From assembly GCA_947501605.1 (NCBI GenBank), contig CANMWZ010000007.1:61921-125920 (forward strand): DNA of 64,000 nucleotides. The letters run 5' to 3'. Shown here one piece after another: positions 51,001 through 57,000 of the stretch. A program made the position numbers. Origin of the DNA: Planctomycetota bacterium. GTDB taxonomy: Bacteria > Planctomycetota > UBA1135 > UBA2386. Numbering within the stretch: position 1 is the first letter of the stretch; each line of letters begins with the position of its first letter.

Positions 51001-54000
51001 CGAGCGCTACCTTGCGACCTTCCGCGGTTGCGGTTCGATGGCGCGCCACGCGGCCATTCGCAAGGCGGGCTACTACGACATCCGCTTCTTCATCTTCGGC
51101 AATGAGCGCGATCTCACGACCCGGTTGCTGAACCTCGGCTACCGGGCCAAGACGGTGCCGAGTATCGAGGTCTTCCACAAGGCGCCGTTCGGCATGCGCC
51201 ACGGCAAGCGGAGCCTCTATTTCCATGTCCGCAACTTCTGGCTCTACGCCTTCAAGTACGCGCCTTGGTCGATGGTCTTGGGGTTCCCCTTCGCGTTCGT
51301 CCTGGGCAAACTCGGCAGCAAGAAGAAGGGCAAGGGCGGCGAGGTCGCCGACGCGATCGGCACCATCGGTCTGTTCGAGAACATTCGGGCGGTGAAATGG
51401 GGCTTCTGGATCTGCATCAAGGCCTCGCTCGCGTCGTTGTGGCATCTACCGTACTGCCTGAAGCACCGGCAGGTCTGTCGGCACGAGGACTTCGAGTTGC
51501 CGCTGAAGTGACGCGGCCCGACCGGGGTGCGTGTGCGCCACTCGGTCGGCGCGGCCCTTGGTCGCGACTCGTGCGAAAAATGTTGTGCGACTTTCGCGCG
51601 CGTCGCATCACGGCGTGCACCCGCCGAACGCAGACAGTGTGCGGCCTTGGTCCGCCTTTCGCCGTTTGTTTGGGGCTGTCGAACACGGTCGCTACGCACA
51701 GTTCCGAGCGCGACTCACGAGCTTTCCCATCGTGTTTGTGCGTCACTTCTACATGGCGAGACGGTCGCTGCCGGCTCGCCGTGGTTACTCCGAAGTCCGG
51801 TGCTTCAAACGCGTGCAAAGGTTCCAACCGAGCGCGCCAGAGAGGCCCGGTGGATGGAGACAAGAGATGTGCAAGGGAGGGTGATCGCCTTACGGGAGGC
51901 GATCACCCGTTTCTCTCGGGTGGAGACCGAGACCGCGCGGCGTAGGATCCCCGCCCCCGTGATCTCCGCGATCGTCGTCAACTGGAATGGCAAGGACTAC
52001 CTAGCCGCGTGCCTGCAGGCGCTGTTGGGTCAGCAGCCGCCCCCCGACGAACTGATCGTGGTGGACAACCACAGCGACGACGGCTCGCGCGAATACGTCA
52101 GCGAGCGGTTCCCGTCCGTGCGCATCATCGACAGCGGCAGCAACGATGGCCCTTGCCGAGCGCGCAACCTCGGGGTCGCGGAAGCGAAGTACGACCTGTG
52201 CCTGCTGGTCGACAACGATGTCGTGCTGCAAACCGGTGCGCTGCGTGCACTCCGCGCGGCGATCGACATCGACGCGCGTACCGCGATGGTGCAGGCCCGC
52301 TCGCTTTGCTCCGACGAGCCTGACCGCGTGCATTACGACTCGGCCGACCTGCACTTCCTCGGCACACTGGTCTTGCACAACTGGTATCGCAAACTGGAAG
52401 AGGCGCCATGGCCCGCAGGCCCCGTCGGCGCTGCGATTGCCTTGTGCGTGCTCGTTCGGCGCCGGCCGTACCTTGACGTTGGCGGCTTCGACCAGAACCT
52501 CTTCATCCTCTACGAGGACAACCAGCTGAGCTACAAGCTGCGCATGCGCGGTCACCTCGTGCGACTCGCCGAAGGAGCGCTTTGCCTGCACCGTGGCGGC
52601 ACAGCCGGCTTGTCGGTCCGAGGGAGCAGCAGTGCTTCGTACTCTGGGCGGCGGACGTTCTTGCACAGTCGCAATCGCTGGTACGTGCTGCTGACCTGCA
52701 TGCGCTGGCGCACCCTGTTGCTGACCTTGCCGGTTCAGCTGCTGTATGGCGCCGTCTACGCCGGTTTCGGCCACGCGCGCGGCCATGTGCGCGACTGGTG
52801 GGCCGGCAAGCTAGAGCTCGTCCGCCTCGTGCCGGTGGCATTGCGGGCGCGCAAGTTGGTGCAGCGTGGGCGAACAGTGCCCGACCGCGAACTGCTGGTC
52901 GCAGCGCCGTTGACACTGAATCCAGGTCTTGCGGAGACCGGCGGCAAGGGGCTGCTGCGGCGCTCGCTCGACGGCACGTTCTCGGTGTGGTGGACCTGCG
53001 TGCGGAGGTTGTGTGGCTGACATCGCAGCGCTACTGCTCAACTGGCGGCAACCGGAGCTCACGGTCCAGTGTCTCCGCGACTTGGTCGCTGCGGCGGTAC
53101 CAGGTCTACGCATCGCGGTCATCGACAACGGTTCGAGCGATGGCTCGGTCGAGGCACTCGAGCCGGCAGTCGCATCGGCCAACAGAGCCGGCGTGCCGAC
53201 GCAGTTGCTCGTGCTGCAGCAGAACCTCGGGTTTACCGGCGGAATGAATGTCGGGTTCGAATGGAGCAAGCAGCAGCGGTGCGAGTTCGCGTTGGTGCTC
53301 AACAACGACTTGAGATTGCAGCCCGGGTTTCTCGAGCCTTTGGTGGCGACGCTGCAGAACGACGTGCGTGTTGCCGCCGTCACTCCGACGGTCCTCTACC
53401 CCGATGGGACGGTGTGGGCGCAGGGCGGCAGCCTTGGGTTCTGTCCGAATGCGCTGCGCTTGCGCGGCAACGGTGACCGACCAGCGCCGGTCGACAGCGG
53501 GCCGGAGTCGATTGACTTCGCGCCGGGCGCTTGCGTGCTGTTTCGGCTGGCGGAAGTGCTTCTGGTCGGTGGCTTCGACGAGCGCTACTTCATGTACTGG
53601 GAAGACGTGGACCTCAGTCTGCGCCTCAAGGCACGCGGCGGGCGAGTCGTCTGGTTGCCGTGGGTTCGCGTCACGCATCTCGGCGGGGCCTCAGCCGGCG
53701 GTGGGCGGTCGCCGCTGCGCAAGTACCTGATGGCGAAGAACAGCCTCCGCTTCTTGAAGACACACGGCTCCCTCAAGCAGTGGATTGCACTCCTGTTGCT
53801 CGACGTGATGTCGCTACCAGTGCTGCTGGTGTTGCGGCCACGTGCGTTCGTCGCGAAGGCCAGCGGTCTGCTCGCCGGGTTCGTCGGCTCCTCGTCGACG
53901 GCGAGCGACGTCACGCGCTGGGCGTAGCGATCGTCGGTTCAGCGGGCGATTGCGCGCTGTGCGATCGCGACGCGCTCGCTGGGCTGTGCCGTTCGCAATT

Positions 54001-57000
54001 GCGAGCGCAGTCGCTCGATCGCCCGTCGTTCGTCCCCGTCGGTCAACAAGTCTTCGTGCCGTGTGCGCGTGCGCGCGGGATCCGGCAAGTCGTCGGTGTC
54101 GCCGGCCGCAAATGCGACCAGAGCGTTTGCCTTCTGCGCGAACAGTCGCACGGTCTCGTCGTCGACCACGCGCTCGTTCGGGGATCGCAGTGTCGCCAGC
54201 AGTGTCAATGCACCGCCGCCTTCCAAGTTGCGTGCAGCGGCGAACAGGCGCTTGCTGCGGACCAGCGCTTGGCAGTGCATGTCGGCCGTGGCGAGACGTC
54301 CTGAGCGCGGGCGGTCGAGCTGGCCAGCGCGCGCCAACGACGACAGGGAATCGAAAACGAACAGCACCCGGGCGCCCGCTTCGGCTTCGCGCTGGGCTGC
54401 CGCGAGCGCCAGTTCGGCGACGTCGATCTGACGCGAAGGCGGTTCGTCAAAGGTTGCAGCGACAACGCAGCCCCGCGGCAATGCCGCTGCGAACACGGTG
54501 CGCTCCTCAGGGGCAGCGTCGAGCAGGCAGGCGCGCACGCAGATCGATGGATCGGCACGGAGTGCGGCGGTGGCGACGCGACGAAGCAGGTCGAGGCGGT
54601 CGATGCGTTCGTCGCCGAAGTCCAGCAGCACCCGCTGCCCGTGGCCCCAGGGCGATAGCGCCCGCATGGTGCGCAGCGGGAGGTCGTCCACCGTTGGCTC
54701 GAGCATGAGCGGCGTCGTGGGCAACACCGGCGTGCGCAGCTCAAAAGGCACGCGTGTGCGATGCTCGGCGAACGGGCGACCGGCCACGGTCTCAACCCGC
54801 AGCAATGCGGCAAACTGCTCGGTCGCCCGCGGCGGGCGCGCGGGTCCTTCGATCAGCAGGCCCGTGCGCAGTCCTAGGTGGTGGAGTTGGTTGCCGGTGA
54901 CGTAGACATCGTCGGCACTGGGAGCGAAGTCGGCGACCGAGGAACGCAGGAACCCGAACCCGTCCGGCGTCACGTCGAGGATGCCGCGAACCCAGCCGAT
55001 GCCGAACTGGCGCGCCCGATGGTGCAGCAGCAGCGCCCGCATGAGCGCTGGCGGCGAGCCGGGTGGCGCTTCTAGGCCGTCGCCGGCGAGGGCCGCGGTG
55101 AGGCCTGCTAGGTCGAGATCTTGAAGGAGCCGTGTGTCTGCTCCGGTGCGGATCACTGCTTCGTAGAGTTCGGTCCTGTCTTCCGGCGGGAGGGTCTCGA
55201 GTACCGCGGCGCTGAACTCAGGCTTTTGGGGCTTCGGGCTCATCGTGTCGCCTCGGTGAGGCGCGTCAGTAGTCCCGCCACCTGTCGTCGCAGGTCGTCG
55301 AGAGAGCCGTCGTTGTCGAGGAGGAAGTTGGCGCGCGCCCGCTTCTCGGAAAGGGGCGCTTGAGCGGCTTCGCGCCGCGCCAGCTCGGCTGGTTCCCAGC
55401 CGCGTTCTGCCGCGCGGGCGGACCTCGTCGCCTCGCTGGCGGCGACGAACACGACATAGTCGCACTCGCCGATCAGGCCGCGCTCGAGGAGTAGCGGAAC
55501 GTCGAGCAGGACCGATGTGGCCTCGCTGCGCGCTTTGGCGAGATCGAGCAGGATCGCCGCGCGGACCGGAGGGTGGGTGAGCGCTTCGAGCCGTGCCCTG
55601 GCGGCTGGGTCCGAGAAAATCATGACGGCCAATCGCTGCCGGTCGAGGCGGCCGTCGGCGCCGACGACGTCTGGGCCCAGGTCGCGCGCCACCGCCTGTA
55701 TGACCTCGGGACGCGCGCTCACCTGGCGAGCGATGCCATCGGCATCAATGTGCCGAACACCGTGGGCCGCAAAGGCCGTCGCGACTGCGGATTTGCCCGC
55801 CGCGATTCCGCCCAAGATCCCGATGACAACGGGCGGGCGGGGTCGGAACGGCAAGGGCTCCAGAGGCTGGTTCTGCGGGGTTCCCGACACCACAGCATCC
55901 TGCCGTGCCCGGGGGGCTGGGCGCAAGCGCGTCGGCAGGCTCCTTGACCTGCCCTTCGGGAGCTTCCTAGAATCTGCCCCTCGCGATGACCGGCATCTCT
56001 GCTGTTCGCGGAAGCAACGCAGCAGCGGACGGTTCTGGCAAGAGCCCACTAGGCTCCCTCATCGTCACTACCCTCTCCAATCGAGCTAGACTCCCCATAG
56101 CTTCGATTCGTAACTCCCACTCGTTCGCCCAGATCCGCTGGTCTCTCCGACCGCCGGACACCCGACAGACCCCACTGGAGCCTCGGCCAATGCAAACCCG
56201 TCAGAGCGGCGCCGCCCACGTCCCGATCATGTTCTTCCTGATCCTCCTGGTGATGTTCCTGGGAGCGTTGGCGTATGCCTACGTGACCACGGATGCCAAC
56301 ACCAACCTGCGCACCGACAACGCGACGCTGCGGGCGGAGTTGAAGACGAACAAGGGGCAGTCGCTGCTGCTCCGCCACTACGTCGAAGACCTTGGTGCAG
56401 TCATCGGGCTGCCCGGCAAGTACACCGGCAAGCCAGAAGCGTCTGCCGAGGTCTACGAGAACAGCTCGCTCGATGGCGTCGCTGGGGTCGTGGATCCCAA
56501 GGAGCTCAAGCAGCGCCTGGACGCATTCGGCAACAACCTGGGGCTGGCCGCCACGCGCGGGATCGAGGACCTGTTCGCCGCGGTCGTCAACCAGAAGGCG
56601 AGTCTCGACAAGCGCATCACCGACGTCTCGACGGAGCGCGACGTGGCCCTGGCTGCCAAGAACGCTACCGACTCGAAGTTCTCCGAAGCCACGACGGCGC
56701 ACACGAGCGCCAGCCTCGAGATGCGCAAAACGCTCGAGCAGACTCGCGCGGACTTCGACAGCGGCAAGACCGAACTGCAGAACCGCATTGGTCTGTTGCA
56801 GCAAAACGTGCGCGACCGCGACAAGCAGCTCGGCGACGAGAAGGAGACGCACACGACCGAGCGCAAGGATCTGCAAGGGCAGATCGGCAAGCTCCAGATG
56901 CACAACACGGCCCTGGTCGACAAGGACAAGATGCGTGTTCCGCCGACCGTCGCGGACGGCAGCATCCTCGTGGCCAAGAGCGGTCTCGCGAGCGCGTTCA

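Follow-up and report, generated by a model that had tools for sequence, protein, structure and literature searches.

The window, i.e. the whole stretch of 64,000 nucleotides analysed here from a contig of a Planctomycetota bacterium, carries on its minus strand (to which all coordinates below refer) the gene rho-2 (53939..55243), whose ORF and translation predict an ATPase-dead paralogue of transcription termination factor Rho, P0001 or Rho-2 (434 aa plus stop, with the stop codon at 53939-53941). The open frame as such extends over 53939..55465, the ATG at 55243 giving the 434-aa product. Directly upstream lies coaE, encoding dephospho-CoA kinase (maximal ORF 55240..56049; Pfam CoaE 149.3 bits, the domain beginning at residue 75 of this ORF), and at the junction its TGA overlaps the rho-2 ATG by 4 nt (ATGA, 55240-55243). 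The GC1/2/3 values of rho-2 (0.76/0.52/0.78) follow a coding-type pattern. Long open frames come cheap at high G+C, which counts against the main reading given below.

P0001 consists of an N-terminal helical region (residues 1-83, 54995..55243; AF2 helices at 12-54 and 65-80), an OB-fold RNA-binding domain (residues 84-156, 54776..54994; Rho_RNA_bind 77.8 bits over residues 86-156) and a RecA-type C-terminal domain that has lost its motor motifs (residues 157-434, 53942..54775; ATP-synt_ab 33.2 bits against a cut-off of 29.5). Pfam Rho_N was undetected in P0001; it is present in intact and half-decayed Rho-2 orthologues with 43.3 and 32.6 bits, respectively. Full-length alignment to known Rho proteins of the E. 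coli and Thermus type reaches E-values of 4e-51 to 8e-50, and alignment to solved Rho proteins covers residues 67-428 against Thermus Rho and 84-413 against that of E. coli, with offsets that were consistent when checked at K184, E211, R212 and D265. NCBIfam scores are far under the cut-offs, i.e. 220.5 vs 509.45 for TIGR00767 and 217.7 vs 315 for NF006886. The AF2 model (pLDDT 92.7, pTM 0.92, a confidence that is alignment-driven) finds E. coli Rho chains as its top Foldseek matches (TM 0.82-0.86), and the Rho complexes PDB 8PEX and 8W8D are among its fold matches; the predicted structure thus has the Rho protomer fold, with the domain order preserved.

Compared with Rho of E. coli and Thermus (TIGR00767; PDB 1PV4, 3ICE and 8HSJ), P0001 shares the primary RNA-binding motifs of the OB fold, i.e. 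DGFGFLRS (54941-54964), DVYVTGN (54890-54910) and TEQFAALL (54800-54823), together with the Walker B Asp and the arginine finger, but differs in most of the motor. GDERIDRL (residues 210-217, 54593..54616) stands opposite E. coli APPKAGKT in the former Walker A loop, where the family alignment reads G183 to D, K184 to R and T185 to L. In LDAAPEE (residues 241-247, 54503..54523), with DAAPEE opposite DERPEE, the equivalents of both E211 and R212, i.e. the catalytic Glu and the Arg valve according to PMC11718236, are Ala. The Walker B region VFDSLSSLARAGQ (54320..54358) keeps the D265 and R272 equivalents and has Ser for R269. R353 and F355 are likewise replaced, and a stretch at 54161..54304 holds a degenerate Q-loop (SGRLATADMHC, 54272-54304) and a degenerate R-loop (RSPNERVVD, 54161-54187), with the conserved motif KRLFAAARN (54227-54253) between them. 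The arginine finger, which acts on the adjacent subunit's site (PMC11718236), is retained in TRTRHEDLL (54044..54070), whose T394, R395 and E397 correspond to E. coli T365, R366 and E368; alignment A1 shows no variation at T394 or E397 and at least 90 % conservation of R395. Judging from these alignments, P0001 has lost the cis-acting ATPase residues and both RNA-tracking loops (Q and R); its primary (rut-type) RNA-binding residues are conserved in its OB fold. The first-pass annotation had described a full-length Rho paralogue without ATPase machinery and with its RNA-binding domain kept, and ORF, Pfam, alignment and the counts in 76 sequences given below bear this out.

The genome contains exactly two Rho_RNA_bind matches, P0001 and P0002 (Rho-1; contig C3). 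Rho-1 has intact motor motifs (APPRSGKT, IDERPEE, LLDSITRL and LVDTGSRMD) and an ATP-synt_ab score of 91.5 bits. Its Rho_RNA_bind score is 43.9 bits, so that the RNA-binding domain of Rho-2 does outscore that of Rho-1, as claimed earlier. The description of this partner as canonical holds for its motor motifs but not for the protein as a whole, since Rho-1 is an atypical copy that lacks Rho_N, whose N-terminal region is rich in Gly and Arg and whose primary RNA site (GNGWLR, DTFVP and QR-M) is degenerate. The Rho-2 type, in contrast, has Rho_N and a canonical OB fold with a textbook primary RNA site. Applying the criteria of PMC11347177 rather than its HMMs, sequence features place Rho-2 in the typical three-domain Group A and Rho-1 in the atypical Group B, and indicate that the decayed gene descends from a typical three-domain Rho. 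PMC11347177 describes paired rho genes of precisely these kinds (Group A with three domains, Group B without the N-terminal domain) in 116 of 2730 genomes, of which 30 belong to the PVC group. While the order to which the window belongs has exactly this pairing, the catalytic residues are stated there to be conserved in both copies, whereas here the Group-A-type copy lacks them throughout one family and in part of another.

Two Rho-like matches had earlier been noted in 24 of 25 genomes, and the larger sample agrees, at least two being present in 58 of the 61 genomes sampled from the order and one in the other three. The Rho-1 clade is split from all other Rho copies with a support of 100, pointing to an old duplication. 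An upstream coaE in the same orientation is found at 79 of 84 Rho-2-type loci vs none of 76 Rho-1 loci, and the ATGA start/stop overlap recurs in 15 of the 79 related loci. By gene order, the window gene is thus the positional orthologue of the order-wide Rho-2 downstream of coaE, in a conserved coaE-rho2 operon. Rho-1 is 93 % identical between the window's genome (G000) and G124, whereas the window's Rho-2 is only 45-51 % identical to those of its genus mates.

Decay had been reported for all four genomes of the family then examined, and it extends further, i.e. the Walker A lysine K184 is kept in none of the 76 Rho-2 sequences of the window's family. Of these, 30 are half-decayed and 45 fully decayed; the decay is a gradient across the family rather than a single state. 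In the half-decayed forms K181 is non-basic and K184 is Arg (both 30/30), R269 is lost and R353 is His (both 29/30), and D210, E211, D265, S266, R272 and R366 (30/30) as well as R212 (29/30) are retained; E211 is absent in 44 of the 45 fully decayed forms. Across all 76, the primary RNA-site residues are kept in 68 (F62), 72 (F64), 75 (R66), 60 (Y80, with Phe in 15 more) and 75 (E108) sequences, and the arginine finger R366 in 73, P0001 included. The loss took place in steps in this family: K181 and R269 changed first, along with K184R and R353H, followed in a second stage by E211 (to Q or A) and collapse of the P-loop, and the window's Rho-2 is one of the most derived forms. P-loop K-to-R and catalytic E-to-Q are classic hydrolysis-stopping changes after which nucleotide binding may remain. 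G068 and G120, both at least 90 % complete, have a half-decayed Rho-2 and no Rho-1, and therefore the half-decayed stage may still be a working Rho.

The earlier statement that other families keep an intact second copy stands for f2-f6 and f8-f10 (all 37 sampled genomes) but fails for f7, where a decayed Rho-2 occupies the same coaE locus in 4 of 11 genomes. These copies are shortened C-terminally, being without the whole part that bears the arginine finger, and their RNA site is intact. A tree joining them with the intact Rho-2 of f7 is unrejected (p-AU 0.584, likelihood 2.85 higher), and the decay in f7 was probably independent of that in the window's family.

Selection was estimated as dN/dS (NG86 with bootstrap CI). 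For the genus g1 pair G124-G125, neither member of which is the window's copy, Rho-2 gives 0.20 (CI 0.14-0.27), with 0.05 for the OB fold, 0.21 (CI 0.13-0.29) for the C-terminal domain and 0.34 for the N-terminal region, its fastest-evolving part, which shows that in the window's genus each of the three parts is under purifying selection. Other pairs give 0.16 (g5), 0.15 (f7), 0.20 (L274-L278, g4) and 0.22 (L277-L278, g4), and five fully decayed pairs, G124-G125 included, range from 0.15 to 0.22 (upper CI at most 0.30), with 0.15-0.21 (upper CI at most 0.29) for the C-terminal domain. For G000 against its genus mates the values of 0.34-0.46 rest on saturated dS, and even so the OB fold gives 0.17-0.25; the frame is kept over 415-429 residues with no frameshift, and the G000 branch is the longest of all (1.67-1.87 changes per site). 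Constraint is uneven, and some genera come close to neutrality, with values of 0.74 for L064-L088 (C-terminal domain 0.81, CI up to 1.05), 0.57-0.68 in genus g2 and 0.70 for L260-L262 (OB fold 1.01). Rho-1 in the same genomes has 0.011-0.24, the values for Rho-2 being several-fold higher. An in-frame stop interrupts rho-2 in 4 of the 91 family genomes (G029, G083, G133 and G080), and G053 and G102 no longer have the gene. Given the dN/dS within the genus, the coding-type GC pattern and the recurring ATGA overlap, Rho-2 does not appear to be simply rotting. The proviso that a decaying duplicate would look similar does apply to some lineages, which, with their dN/dS of 0.57-0.74 and the stops, do resemble genes in the course of being lost. 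Parts of rho-2 are matched at 99 % or more by contigs from RNA-labelled libraries of two studies, and a pair of these contigs bridges the coaE/rho-2 junction; in X1, such contigs span every gene of an 8.2-kb stretch (30/30 bins), and DNA carry-over is possible.

Taken together, we see an even chance that rho-2 is an ATPase-dead descendant of Rho kept by selection as a motor-less, RNA-binding Rho-like protein, and Rho-2 probably modulates termination rather than being the product of a dead gene; no published description of an ATPase-dead Rho-2 was found in the literature searched. Rho-2 would assemble through its Rho-like C-terminal domain and use its N-terminal face to bind single-stranded RNA that is rich in C, but would be unable to close on the RNA and translocate. 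Since it is predicted to bind without translocating, its most likely targets are the loading sites of Rho, or nascent RNA generally, which it would occupy, thereby tuning or opposing termination by Rho-1, the cell's one ATPase-competent Rho. The earlier interpretation is partly supported.

An arginine finger is of no obvious use in a homomeric dead ring. On this point a rather unlikely alternative fits better, namely that Rho-2 joins Rho-1 in a mixed ring as a subunit without catalytic function. It would contribute a canonical site for RNA loading, its N-terminal helical domain and an arginine finger acting in trans, and Rho-1 would contribute working P-loops, so that one paralogue would recognise RNA and the other would hydrolyse ATP. 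The finger motif T365-R366-x-E368 survives in 73 of the 76 family sequences while every cis phosphate contact is lost, although this retention may be structural. The two copies are complementary in Rho_N and in the primary RNA site, both occur together in 58 of the 61 genomes, and fully decayed Rho-2 without Rho-1 (7/45) is confined to genomes of 58-89 % completeness; the half-decayed copies without Rho-1 in G068 and G120, however, mean that Rho-2 is no obligate partner at that stage. The comparison is with F1-ATPase alpha of the RecA/ATP-synt_ab superfamily, a non-catalytic ring subunit with a nucleotide-binding P-loop in a proven hetero-hexamer. Both are paralogous ring subunits that have lost the catalytic Glu and still offer an arginine finger to the neighbour, but P0001 lacks the P-loop and no such hexamer is proven for Rho-2. 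Moreover, ATPase-dead subunits mixed into the E. coli Rho ring are dominant-negative, and the independently decayed f7 copies are without the part carrying the finger. A complex prediction of the Rho-1 core with Rho-2 (score 0.38, best control 0.00; runs sharing at least 82 % of contacts, partner pLDDT at least 84) lends weak support to co-assembly and may only recall solved Rho homo-hexamers. Among solved complexes, 116 of 157 attain the mark used, only 18 of the 157 at 0.60 or under, as do 2 of 215 mismatched pairs. Hetero-hexamers of both Rho types have already been proposed in PMC11347177.

It is unlikely that rho-2 is merely a duplicate heading for loss, dispensable once Rho-1 had taken over termination, its open frames persisting through the G+C-rich genome and its place in the coaE transcript. 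The progressive decay along the family, the stops, the two gene losses, the very long G000 branch, the excess of dN/dS over Rho-1 and the pairs at 0.57-0.74 (CIs up to about 0.9-1.05) would all be expected of such a gene, but low dN/dS in the five fully decayed pairs, even in the dead C-terminal domain, would not, nor would a frame intact at 45-51 % identity, nearly invariant RNA-site residues, the conserved ATGA coupling to coaE and a second family with the same outcome, i.e. motor lost and RNA site kept. That Rho-2 is still an NTPase via a non-canonical site is highly improbable: the motor residues retained by half-decayed forms, their standing alone in G068 and G120 and the K184R reported in Rho of five Actinomycetes species (PMC11347177) speak for it, but it can apply to the half-decayed relatives only, P0001 being without the glycine-rich loop, catalytic Glu, Arg valve and adenine-stacking residue.

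A selected, motor-less RNA binder would have counterparts made in the laboratory. RecA K72R is an engineered ATPase-dead mutant. ATPase-dead Rho mutants include D265N and R366A of E. coli, which cut ATP hydrolysis with RNA binding unaffected, and E386A of M. tuberculosis (PMC5379054). Rho-2 would resemble these in its predicted loss of hydrolysis with RNA binding retained, but they are point mutants, whereas rho-2 is natural, long-lived and has many further changes. Protein antagonists of Rho such as Psu and Rof/YaeO have unrelated folds and bind Rho itself, whereas Rho-2 is paralogous to Rho, and its action would be through RNA or co-assembly. If Rho-2 does compete with Rho-1, the consequence would be less Rho-dependent termination, as with Psu and Rof/YaeO.

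The rho-2 gene lies on the minus strand at 53939..55243 and, read from the ATG at 55243 within an open frame spanning 53939..55465, encodes a protein of 434 aa (P0001). Its start codon forms an ATGA overlap with the TGA of the upstream coaE gene. The GTG at 55465 (508 aa) was ruled out as a start, since orthologues begin at the coaE stop and their alignment to the 434-aa form sets in at about its residue 5. The GC1/2/3 values of rho-2 (0.76/0.52/0.78) are of the coding type, like those of coaE and of the other rho gene of the genome, in a window of 62–70 % G+C. Three consecutive family-2 glycosyltransferase genes (Pfam Glycos_transf_2, 70.1, 80.2 and 50.7 bits) occupy 50588-53927 on the plus strand and converge on rho-2, the third ending 12 nt from the rho-2 stop.

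In Pfam, P0001 shows Rho_RNA_bind at 77.8 bits (residues 86-156) and a marginal ATP-synt_ab match (33.2 bits versus a cut-off of 29.5); no Rho_N was found by Pfam, while N-terminal helices are present in the predicted structure. The NCBIfam models TIGR00767 (220.5 versus a cut-off of 509.45) and NF006886 (217.7 versus 315) align over nearly the full length, and NF041509 paralog_Rho2 (Rho, short form) reaches 159 bits, below its 628-bit cut-off. Searched with phmmer against solved structures, residues 67-428 align to Thermus Rho (E 4.3e-51) and residues 84-413 to E. coli Rho (E about 8e-50). The AlphaFold2 model, based on an alignment of 44 sequences, has a pLDDT of 92.7 and a pTM of 0.92, and its top Foldseek matches are E. 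coli Rho chains (TM 0.82-0.86).

Residues were numbered after E. coli Rho by counting along the phmmer alignment to the solved protein, which places K184, E211, R212 and D265 at their literature positions, and their roles were taken from PMC11718236, PMC5379054 and PMC11347177, i.e.: the K181/K184/T185 region holds the phosphates and Mg, E211 activates water, R212 gates the gamma-phosphate, and the Q- and R-loops track RNA in the channel. P0001 has lost the Walker A motif GxxxxGK[TS] (K181, K184, T185), which now reads GDERIDRL; Ala stands in place of both the catalytic E211 and the Arg valve R212, Ser in place of R269 and Leu in place of R353, and a deletion has removed F355. The secondary RNA site is likewise unrecognizable, the Q-loop reading SGRLATADMHC (SGKILSGGVEA in an intact orthologue) and the R-loop RSPNERVVD (LIDTGSRMD). 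Kept, on the other hand, are the Walker B Asp (D265, D298 of P0001), the equivalent of R272, the arginine finger R366 (R395, within T394-R395-x-E397) and the KRxFxAARN and GGxLT motifs, as well as the primary RNA-site motifs DGFGFLRS, DVYV and E-x-F, with positions F62, F64, R66, Y80, E108 and Y110 occupied by F, F, R, Y, E and F. The other Rho of the genome (P0002, encoded on contig C3) has all motor motifs intact, a weaker RNA-domain score (43.9 bits), no Rho_N and a long Gly/Arg-rich N-terminal region. Motif alignment, Pfam scores and the motifs of P0002 thus bear out the first-pass annotation, which had reported a second full-length Rho homologue with replaced motor motifs and a kept RNA-binding domain beside an intact Rho.

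Rho-like matches were found in all 61 genomes of the order, and at least two in 58 of them. In a tree of 116 sequences, a clade of 58 including P0002 (Rho-1) split off with a support of 100; every copy outside it, all decayed copies included, was assigned to Rho-2. In 79 of 84 Rho-2-type loci the gene immediately upstream, on the same strand, encodes CoaE (with an ATGA overlap in 15 of the 79), whereas none of 76 Rho-1 loci has it upstream; the five Rho-2-type loci without it are at contig ends (three) or in family f5 (two). This synteny settles orthology. Under the criteria that Moreira et al. (PMC11347177) set out, Rho-2 is ‘Group A’ and Rho-1 is ‘Group B’: the genome of the window holds two copies, P0002 lacks Rho_N, and orthologues of P0001 carry it (43.3 bits in an intact and 32.6 bits in a half-decayed copy, i.e. 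the milder of two grades of motor-motif loss) together with a canonical OB fold. According to PMC11347177, 116 of 2730 genomes (30 from the PVC group) carry two rho genes, and the catalytic ATPase residues are conserved in both copies; in P0001 they are not.

In Rho-1 proteins Rho_N is absent and the primary site has degenerated, for example to GNGWLR / DTFVP / QR-M. Therefore, the copy that the first-pass annotation had taken for the canonical Rho is the atypical one, and it is the typical Rho that gave rise to the decayed gene. The Gly/Arg-rich N-terminus of Rho-1 in the window's genome (locus L002), in which an unbroken run of about 22 Gly precedes the OB fold, is similar to the disordered ‘additional regions’ reported in atypical Rho. 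At another Rho-1 locus, L120 (G004:C1:1614641-1618369), the coding sequence breaks into two frames at about residue 338 in the alignment to P0002, by either a frameshift or an assembly error; the Rho-2 of this 7-Mb genome is intact.

Rho-2 is intact in all 37 sampled genomes of families f2-f6 and f8-f10. Of the 13 genomes of the window's family, f1, in the order sample, eight have a fully decayed and four a half-decayed copy, and one lacks the gene. The classes in this sample were corrected by hand, since G017, reading MPQAFPRQ / IEEDEGE, is not half-decayed and L106 is a fragment. A survey of 91 f1 genomes yielded 76 Rho-2 sequences, of which none has Lys at position 184 (Arg in 61, other residues in 15). 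The full motif set could be classed in 75, i.e. 30 half-decayed and 45 fully decayed, with L279 excluded and L024 reclassified. All 30 half-decayed copies have a non-basic residue at 181 and K184R; R269 is lost in 29 and R353H is present in 29; D210, E211, D265, S266, R272, T365, R366 and E368 are kept in all 30 and R212 in 29. In the fully decayed copies the P-loop has collapsed and E211 has become Q (34 of 45) or A (10), with R366 still present in 43 and D265 in 44. The primary RNA site is near-invariant throughout the 76 sequences (R66 and E108 in 75 each, F64 in 72, F62 in 68 plus six with Y, Y80 in 60 plus 15 with F). Loss would have begun with changes at K181, K184, R269 and R353, continued with E211Q and ended in the collapse of the P-loop, the stages surviving in relatives.

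In family f7, Rho-2 is intact in five of 11 genomes and decayed in four; no Rho-2 was classified in the other two, one with a single Rho match (G014) and one with only a fragment beside coaE (G043). The four decayed copies (L060, L083, L098, L099) lie downstream of coaE, retain DGFGFLR / D[FV]YVSP / FA[ML][LM] and have open frames of 344-393 aa that end before the R353/R366 region. The free tree united the decayed copies of f7 and f1; this grouping was regarded as a meeting of long branches and was not taken to indicate a single origin. A tree constrained to group the decayed f7 copies with the intact Rho-2 of f7 was not rejected by an AU test (p-AU 0.584) and had a likelihood 2.85 higher, which, considering the shared coaE locus, points to a second, independent loss in f7 but does not prove it.

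A phmmer search of P0001 against 1.84 billion cluster representatives gave 5355 proteins at E≤0.001 and 669 at E≤1e-30. Among the best 150 matches, GK[TS] is intact in 117, not intact in 32 (P0001 counted) and lies in an absent region in one. The 31 besides P0001 that lack an intact P-loop divide into 22 closest to f1 Rho-2 and nine (P0027, P0030, P0061, P0077, P0087, P0106, P0114, P0119 and P0132) to intact Group-A Rho of f3 or f4, at 40-64 % identity. Eight of the nine carry Q, A, L, R or S instead of the P-loop lysine within a recognizable loop context, and P0087 (SSKNRVKP) may reflect a local misalignment; long N-terminal extensions (531-928 aa) occur in some, and R366 is missing as well from several. 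Judged by their motifs, they are possible independent motor-dead Rho paralogues of other lineages, so that motor loss in Rho paralogues may recur elsewhere. P0085, a library protein of 107 aa, matches residues 1-86 of P0001 at 98 % identity, so a near-identical organism has been sampled elsewhere as a fragment.

Of ten RNA-labelled runs, five contain sequence from the stretch, two at 0.88 and 0.73 of the sampled words, and the matching contigs are at least 99 % identical. Contigs of library X1 span 53734-54503 and 54633-55521 and one of X2 spans 55207-56462, the latter two bridging the coaE/rho-2 junction; X4, from a second study, gave short contigs at 54691-54841 and 54880-55029. Since X1 covers every bin of an 8.2-kb stretch, DNA carry-over is possible, and the contigs are weak support at most for rho-2 expression; they indicate presence in RNA-labelled libraries and were rejected as proof of transcription, strand or level. 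In X4, contig depth is 24-35 over a plus-strand ORF of up to 495 aa at 55986-57473, compared with 0-5 for the adjoining genes. This ORF matches no Pfam family; the N-terminal segment of its product is hydrophobic and the long body charged and coiled-coil-like, and it may be a membrane-anchored protein with high expression.

Pairwise Nei-Gojobori estimates with codon bootstraps show how far Rho-2 is still under selection. In the window's genus, a pair of copies from two relatives (G124-G125, dS 0.37) gives a dN/dS of 0.20 (0.14-0.27), i.e. 0.05 for the OB fold, 0.21 (0.13-0.29) for the C-terminal domain and 0.34 for the N-terminal helices. Fully decayed pairs of genus g5 (0.16), of f7 (G051-G055, 0.15) and of g4 (two pairs, 0.20 and 0.22) are similar, half-decayed pairs range from 0.06 to 0.49, and Rho-1 of the same genomes from 0.011 to 0.24. 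Compared with its relatives, the window's own copy gives 0.34-0.46 (OB fold 0.17-0.25) at a saturated dS of 1.05-1.47, and its branch is the longest in the trees. Higher values were found for g4 L064-L088 (0.74; C-terminal domain 0.81, with a confidence interval reaching 1.05), g63 L260-L262 (0.70; OB fold 1.01) and the g2 pairs (0.50-0.68). Constraint on Rho-2 is therefore real but relaxed, peaks on the OB fold and is gone in some lineages.

These data also bear on whether Rho-2 is simply a gene on its way to loss. Some relatives look like pseudogenes or nearly so, since four f1 genomes (G029, G083, G133 and G080) carry one in-frame stop each and several pairs stand at 0.57-0.74, and two genomes (G053 and G102) have only Rho-1. 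The rho-2 of the window, with 434 codons free of stops and frameshifts, coding-like GC1/2/3 and the dN/dS of 0.20 in G124-G125, does not, and we regard impending loss as an unlikely explanation. The features retained under selection are the RNA site of the rut type, the C-terminal fold as a whole and the arginine finger, which acts in trans.

Judged by its residues, P0001 cannot be a motor, because those for phosphate and Mg binding, E211, R212 and the Q- and R-loops are gone, and that it should still be an NTPase is very improbable. In E. coli Rho, a single change at D265 or R366, both kept in P0001, cuts ATP hydrolysis while RNA binding persists (PMC5379054). The reading we prefer, to which we give an even chance, is that of a competitor or modulator: the motor-less P0001 would sit on Rho loading sites of nascent RNA and thereby modulate termination by Rho-1. 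P0001 might also be a non-catalytic subunit in a mixed ring with Rho-1, which we consider possible but rather doubtful. In favour of the mixed ring are the retained trans-acting finger of Rho-2, the complementarity of the two copies, since Rho-1 has the motor but lacks the N-terminal domain and binds RNA through a poor site, and the earlier proposal of hetero-hexamers of two Rho types (PMC11347177). A complex prediction for the Rho-1 core with Rho-2 as a heterodimer scored 0.38 (best control 0.00), a weak result that may just reflect solved Rho hexamers; the mark for such predictions is reached by 116 of 157 solved complexes and two of 215 mismatched pairs, at 0.60 or below by only 18 of the 157, and the runs agree in at least 82 % of contacts with a partner pLDDT of at least 84. 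It is tempting to speculate, although we think it improbable, that Rho in f1 is a two-gene machine, in which Rho-2, devoid of ATP hydrolysis, would load RNA and donate the finger as the non-catalytic member of an alpha3-beta3-like mixed ring with the atypical Rho-1. Rho homologues without the P-loop lysine in unrelated lineages would then hint that the same path was followed more than once. The likeness to F1-alpha, a non-catalytic ring subunit, would lie in the way of working and not in homology, and P0001 retains the finger.

Against an obligate partnership stand two genomes with a half-decayed Rho-2, G068 (L139, L285; 8.1 Mb in two contigs, 91 % complete) and G120 (L244, L286; 90 % complete), in which neither the Pfam RNA-domain model nor a P0002 query detected Rho-1. 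Their Rho-2 copies read TPPLAGR[ST] at the P-loop and keep DERPED, at a pair dN/dS of 0.26. Considering that K184R also occurs in the Rho of five Actinomycetes species (PMC11347177), the half-decayed stage may still be a working Rho; for G068 and G120, either a Rho without K181 and K184 is functional or Rho-dependent termination is absent. Fully decayed copies without Rho-1 are seven of 45, all in genomes 58-89 % complete, and Rho-1 was found for the other 38.

Duplicated rho genes and possible hetero-hexamers are already in print (PMC11347177). Full-text literature searches, and the sections and supplement passages of that paper that were consulted (its supplementary figures S6-S8 and S15, which could show decayed copies, not among them), turned up no account of an ATPase-dead Rho paralogue of full length. 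PMC13613805 describes a cyanobacterial ‘Rho-like protein’, but this consists only of an N-terminal domain and is therefore unrelated.

As a warning for annotation, domain content alone names these genes ‘transcription termination factor Rho’. Rho is usually viewed as a homo-hexameric motor that requires ATP hydrolysis of every subunit. In contrast, the textbook-type copy is motor-less in all 76 sequenced f1 members, while its RNA-recognition surface is still selected. Rho-2 would be a naturally occurring pseudo-enzyme form of a factor central to gene expression, either a built-in competitor for loading sites or a non-catalytic ring subunit, and f1 offers a graded natural series of intermediates in which the separability of RNA loading, ring assembly and partner binding from translocation is testable.
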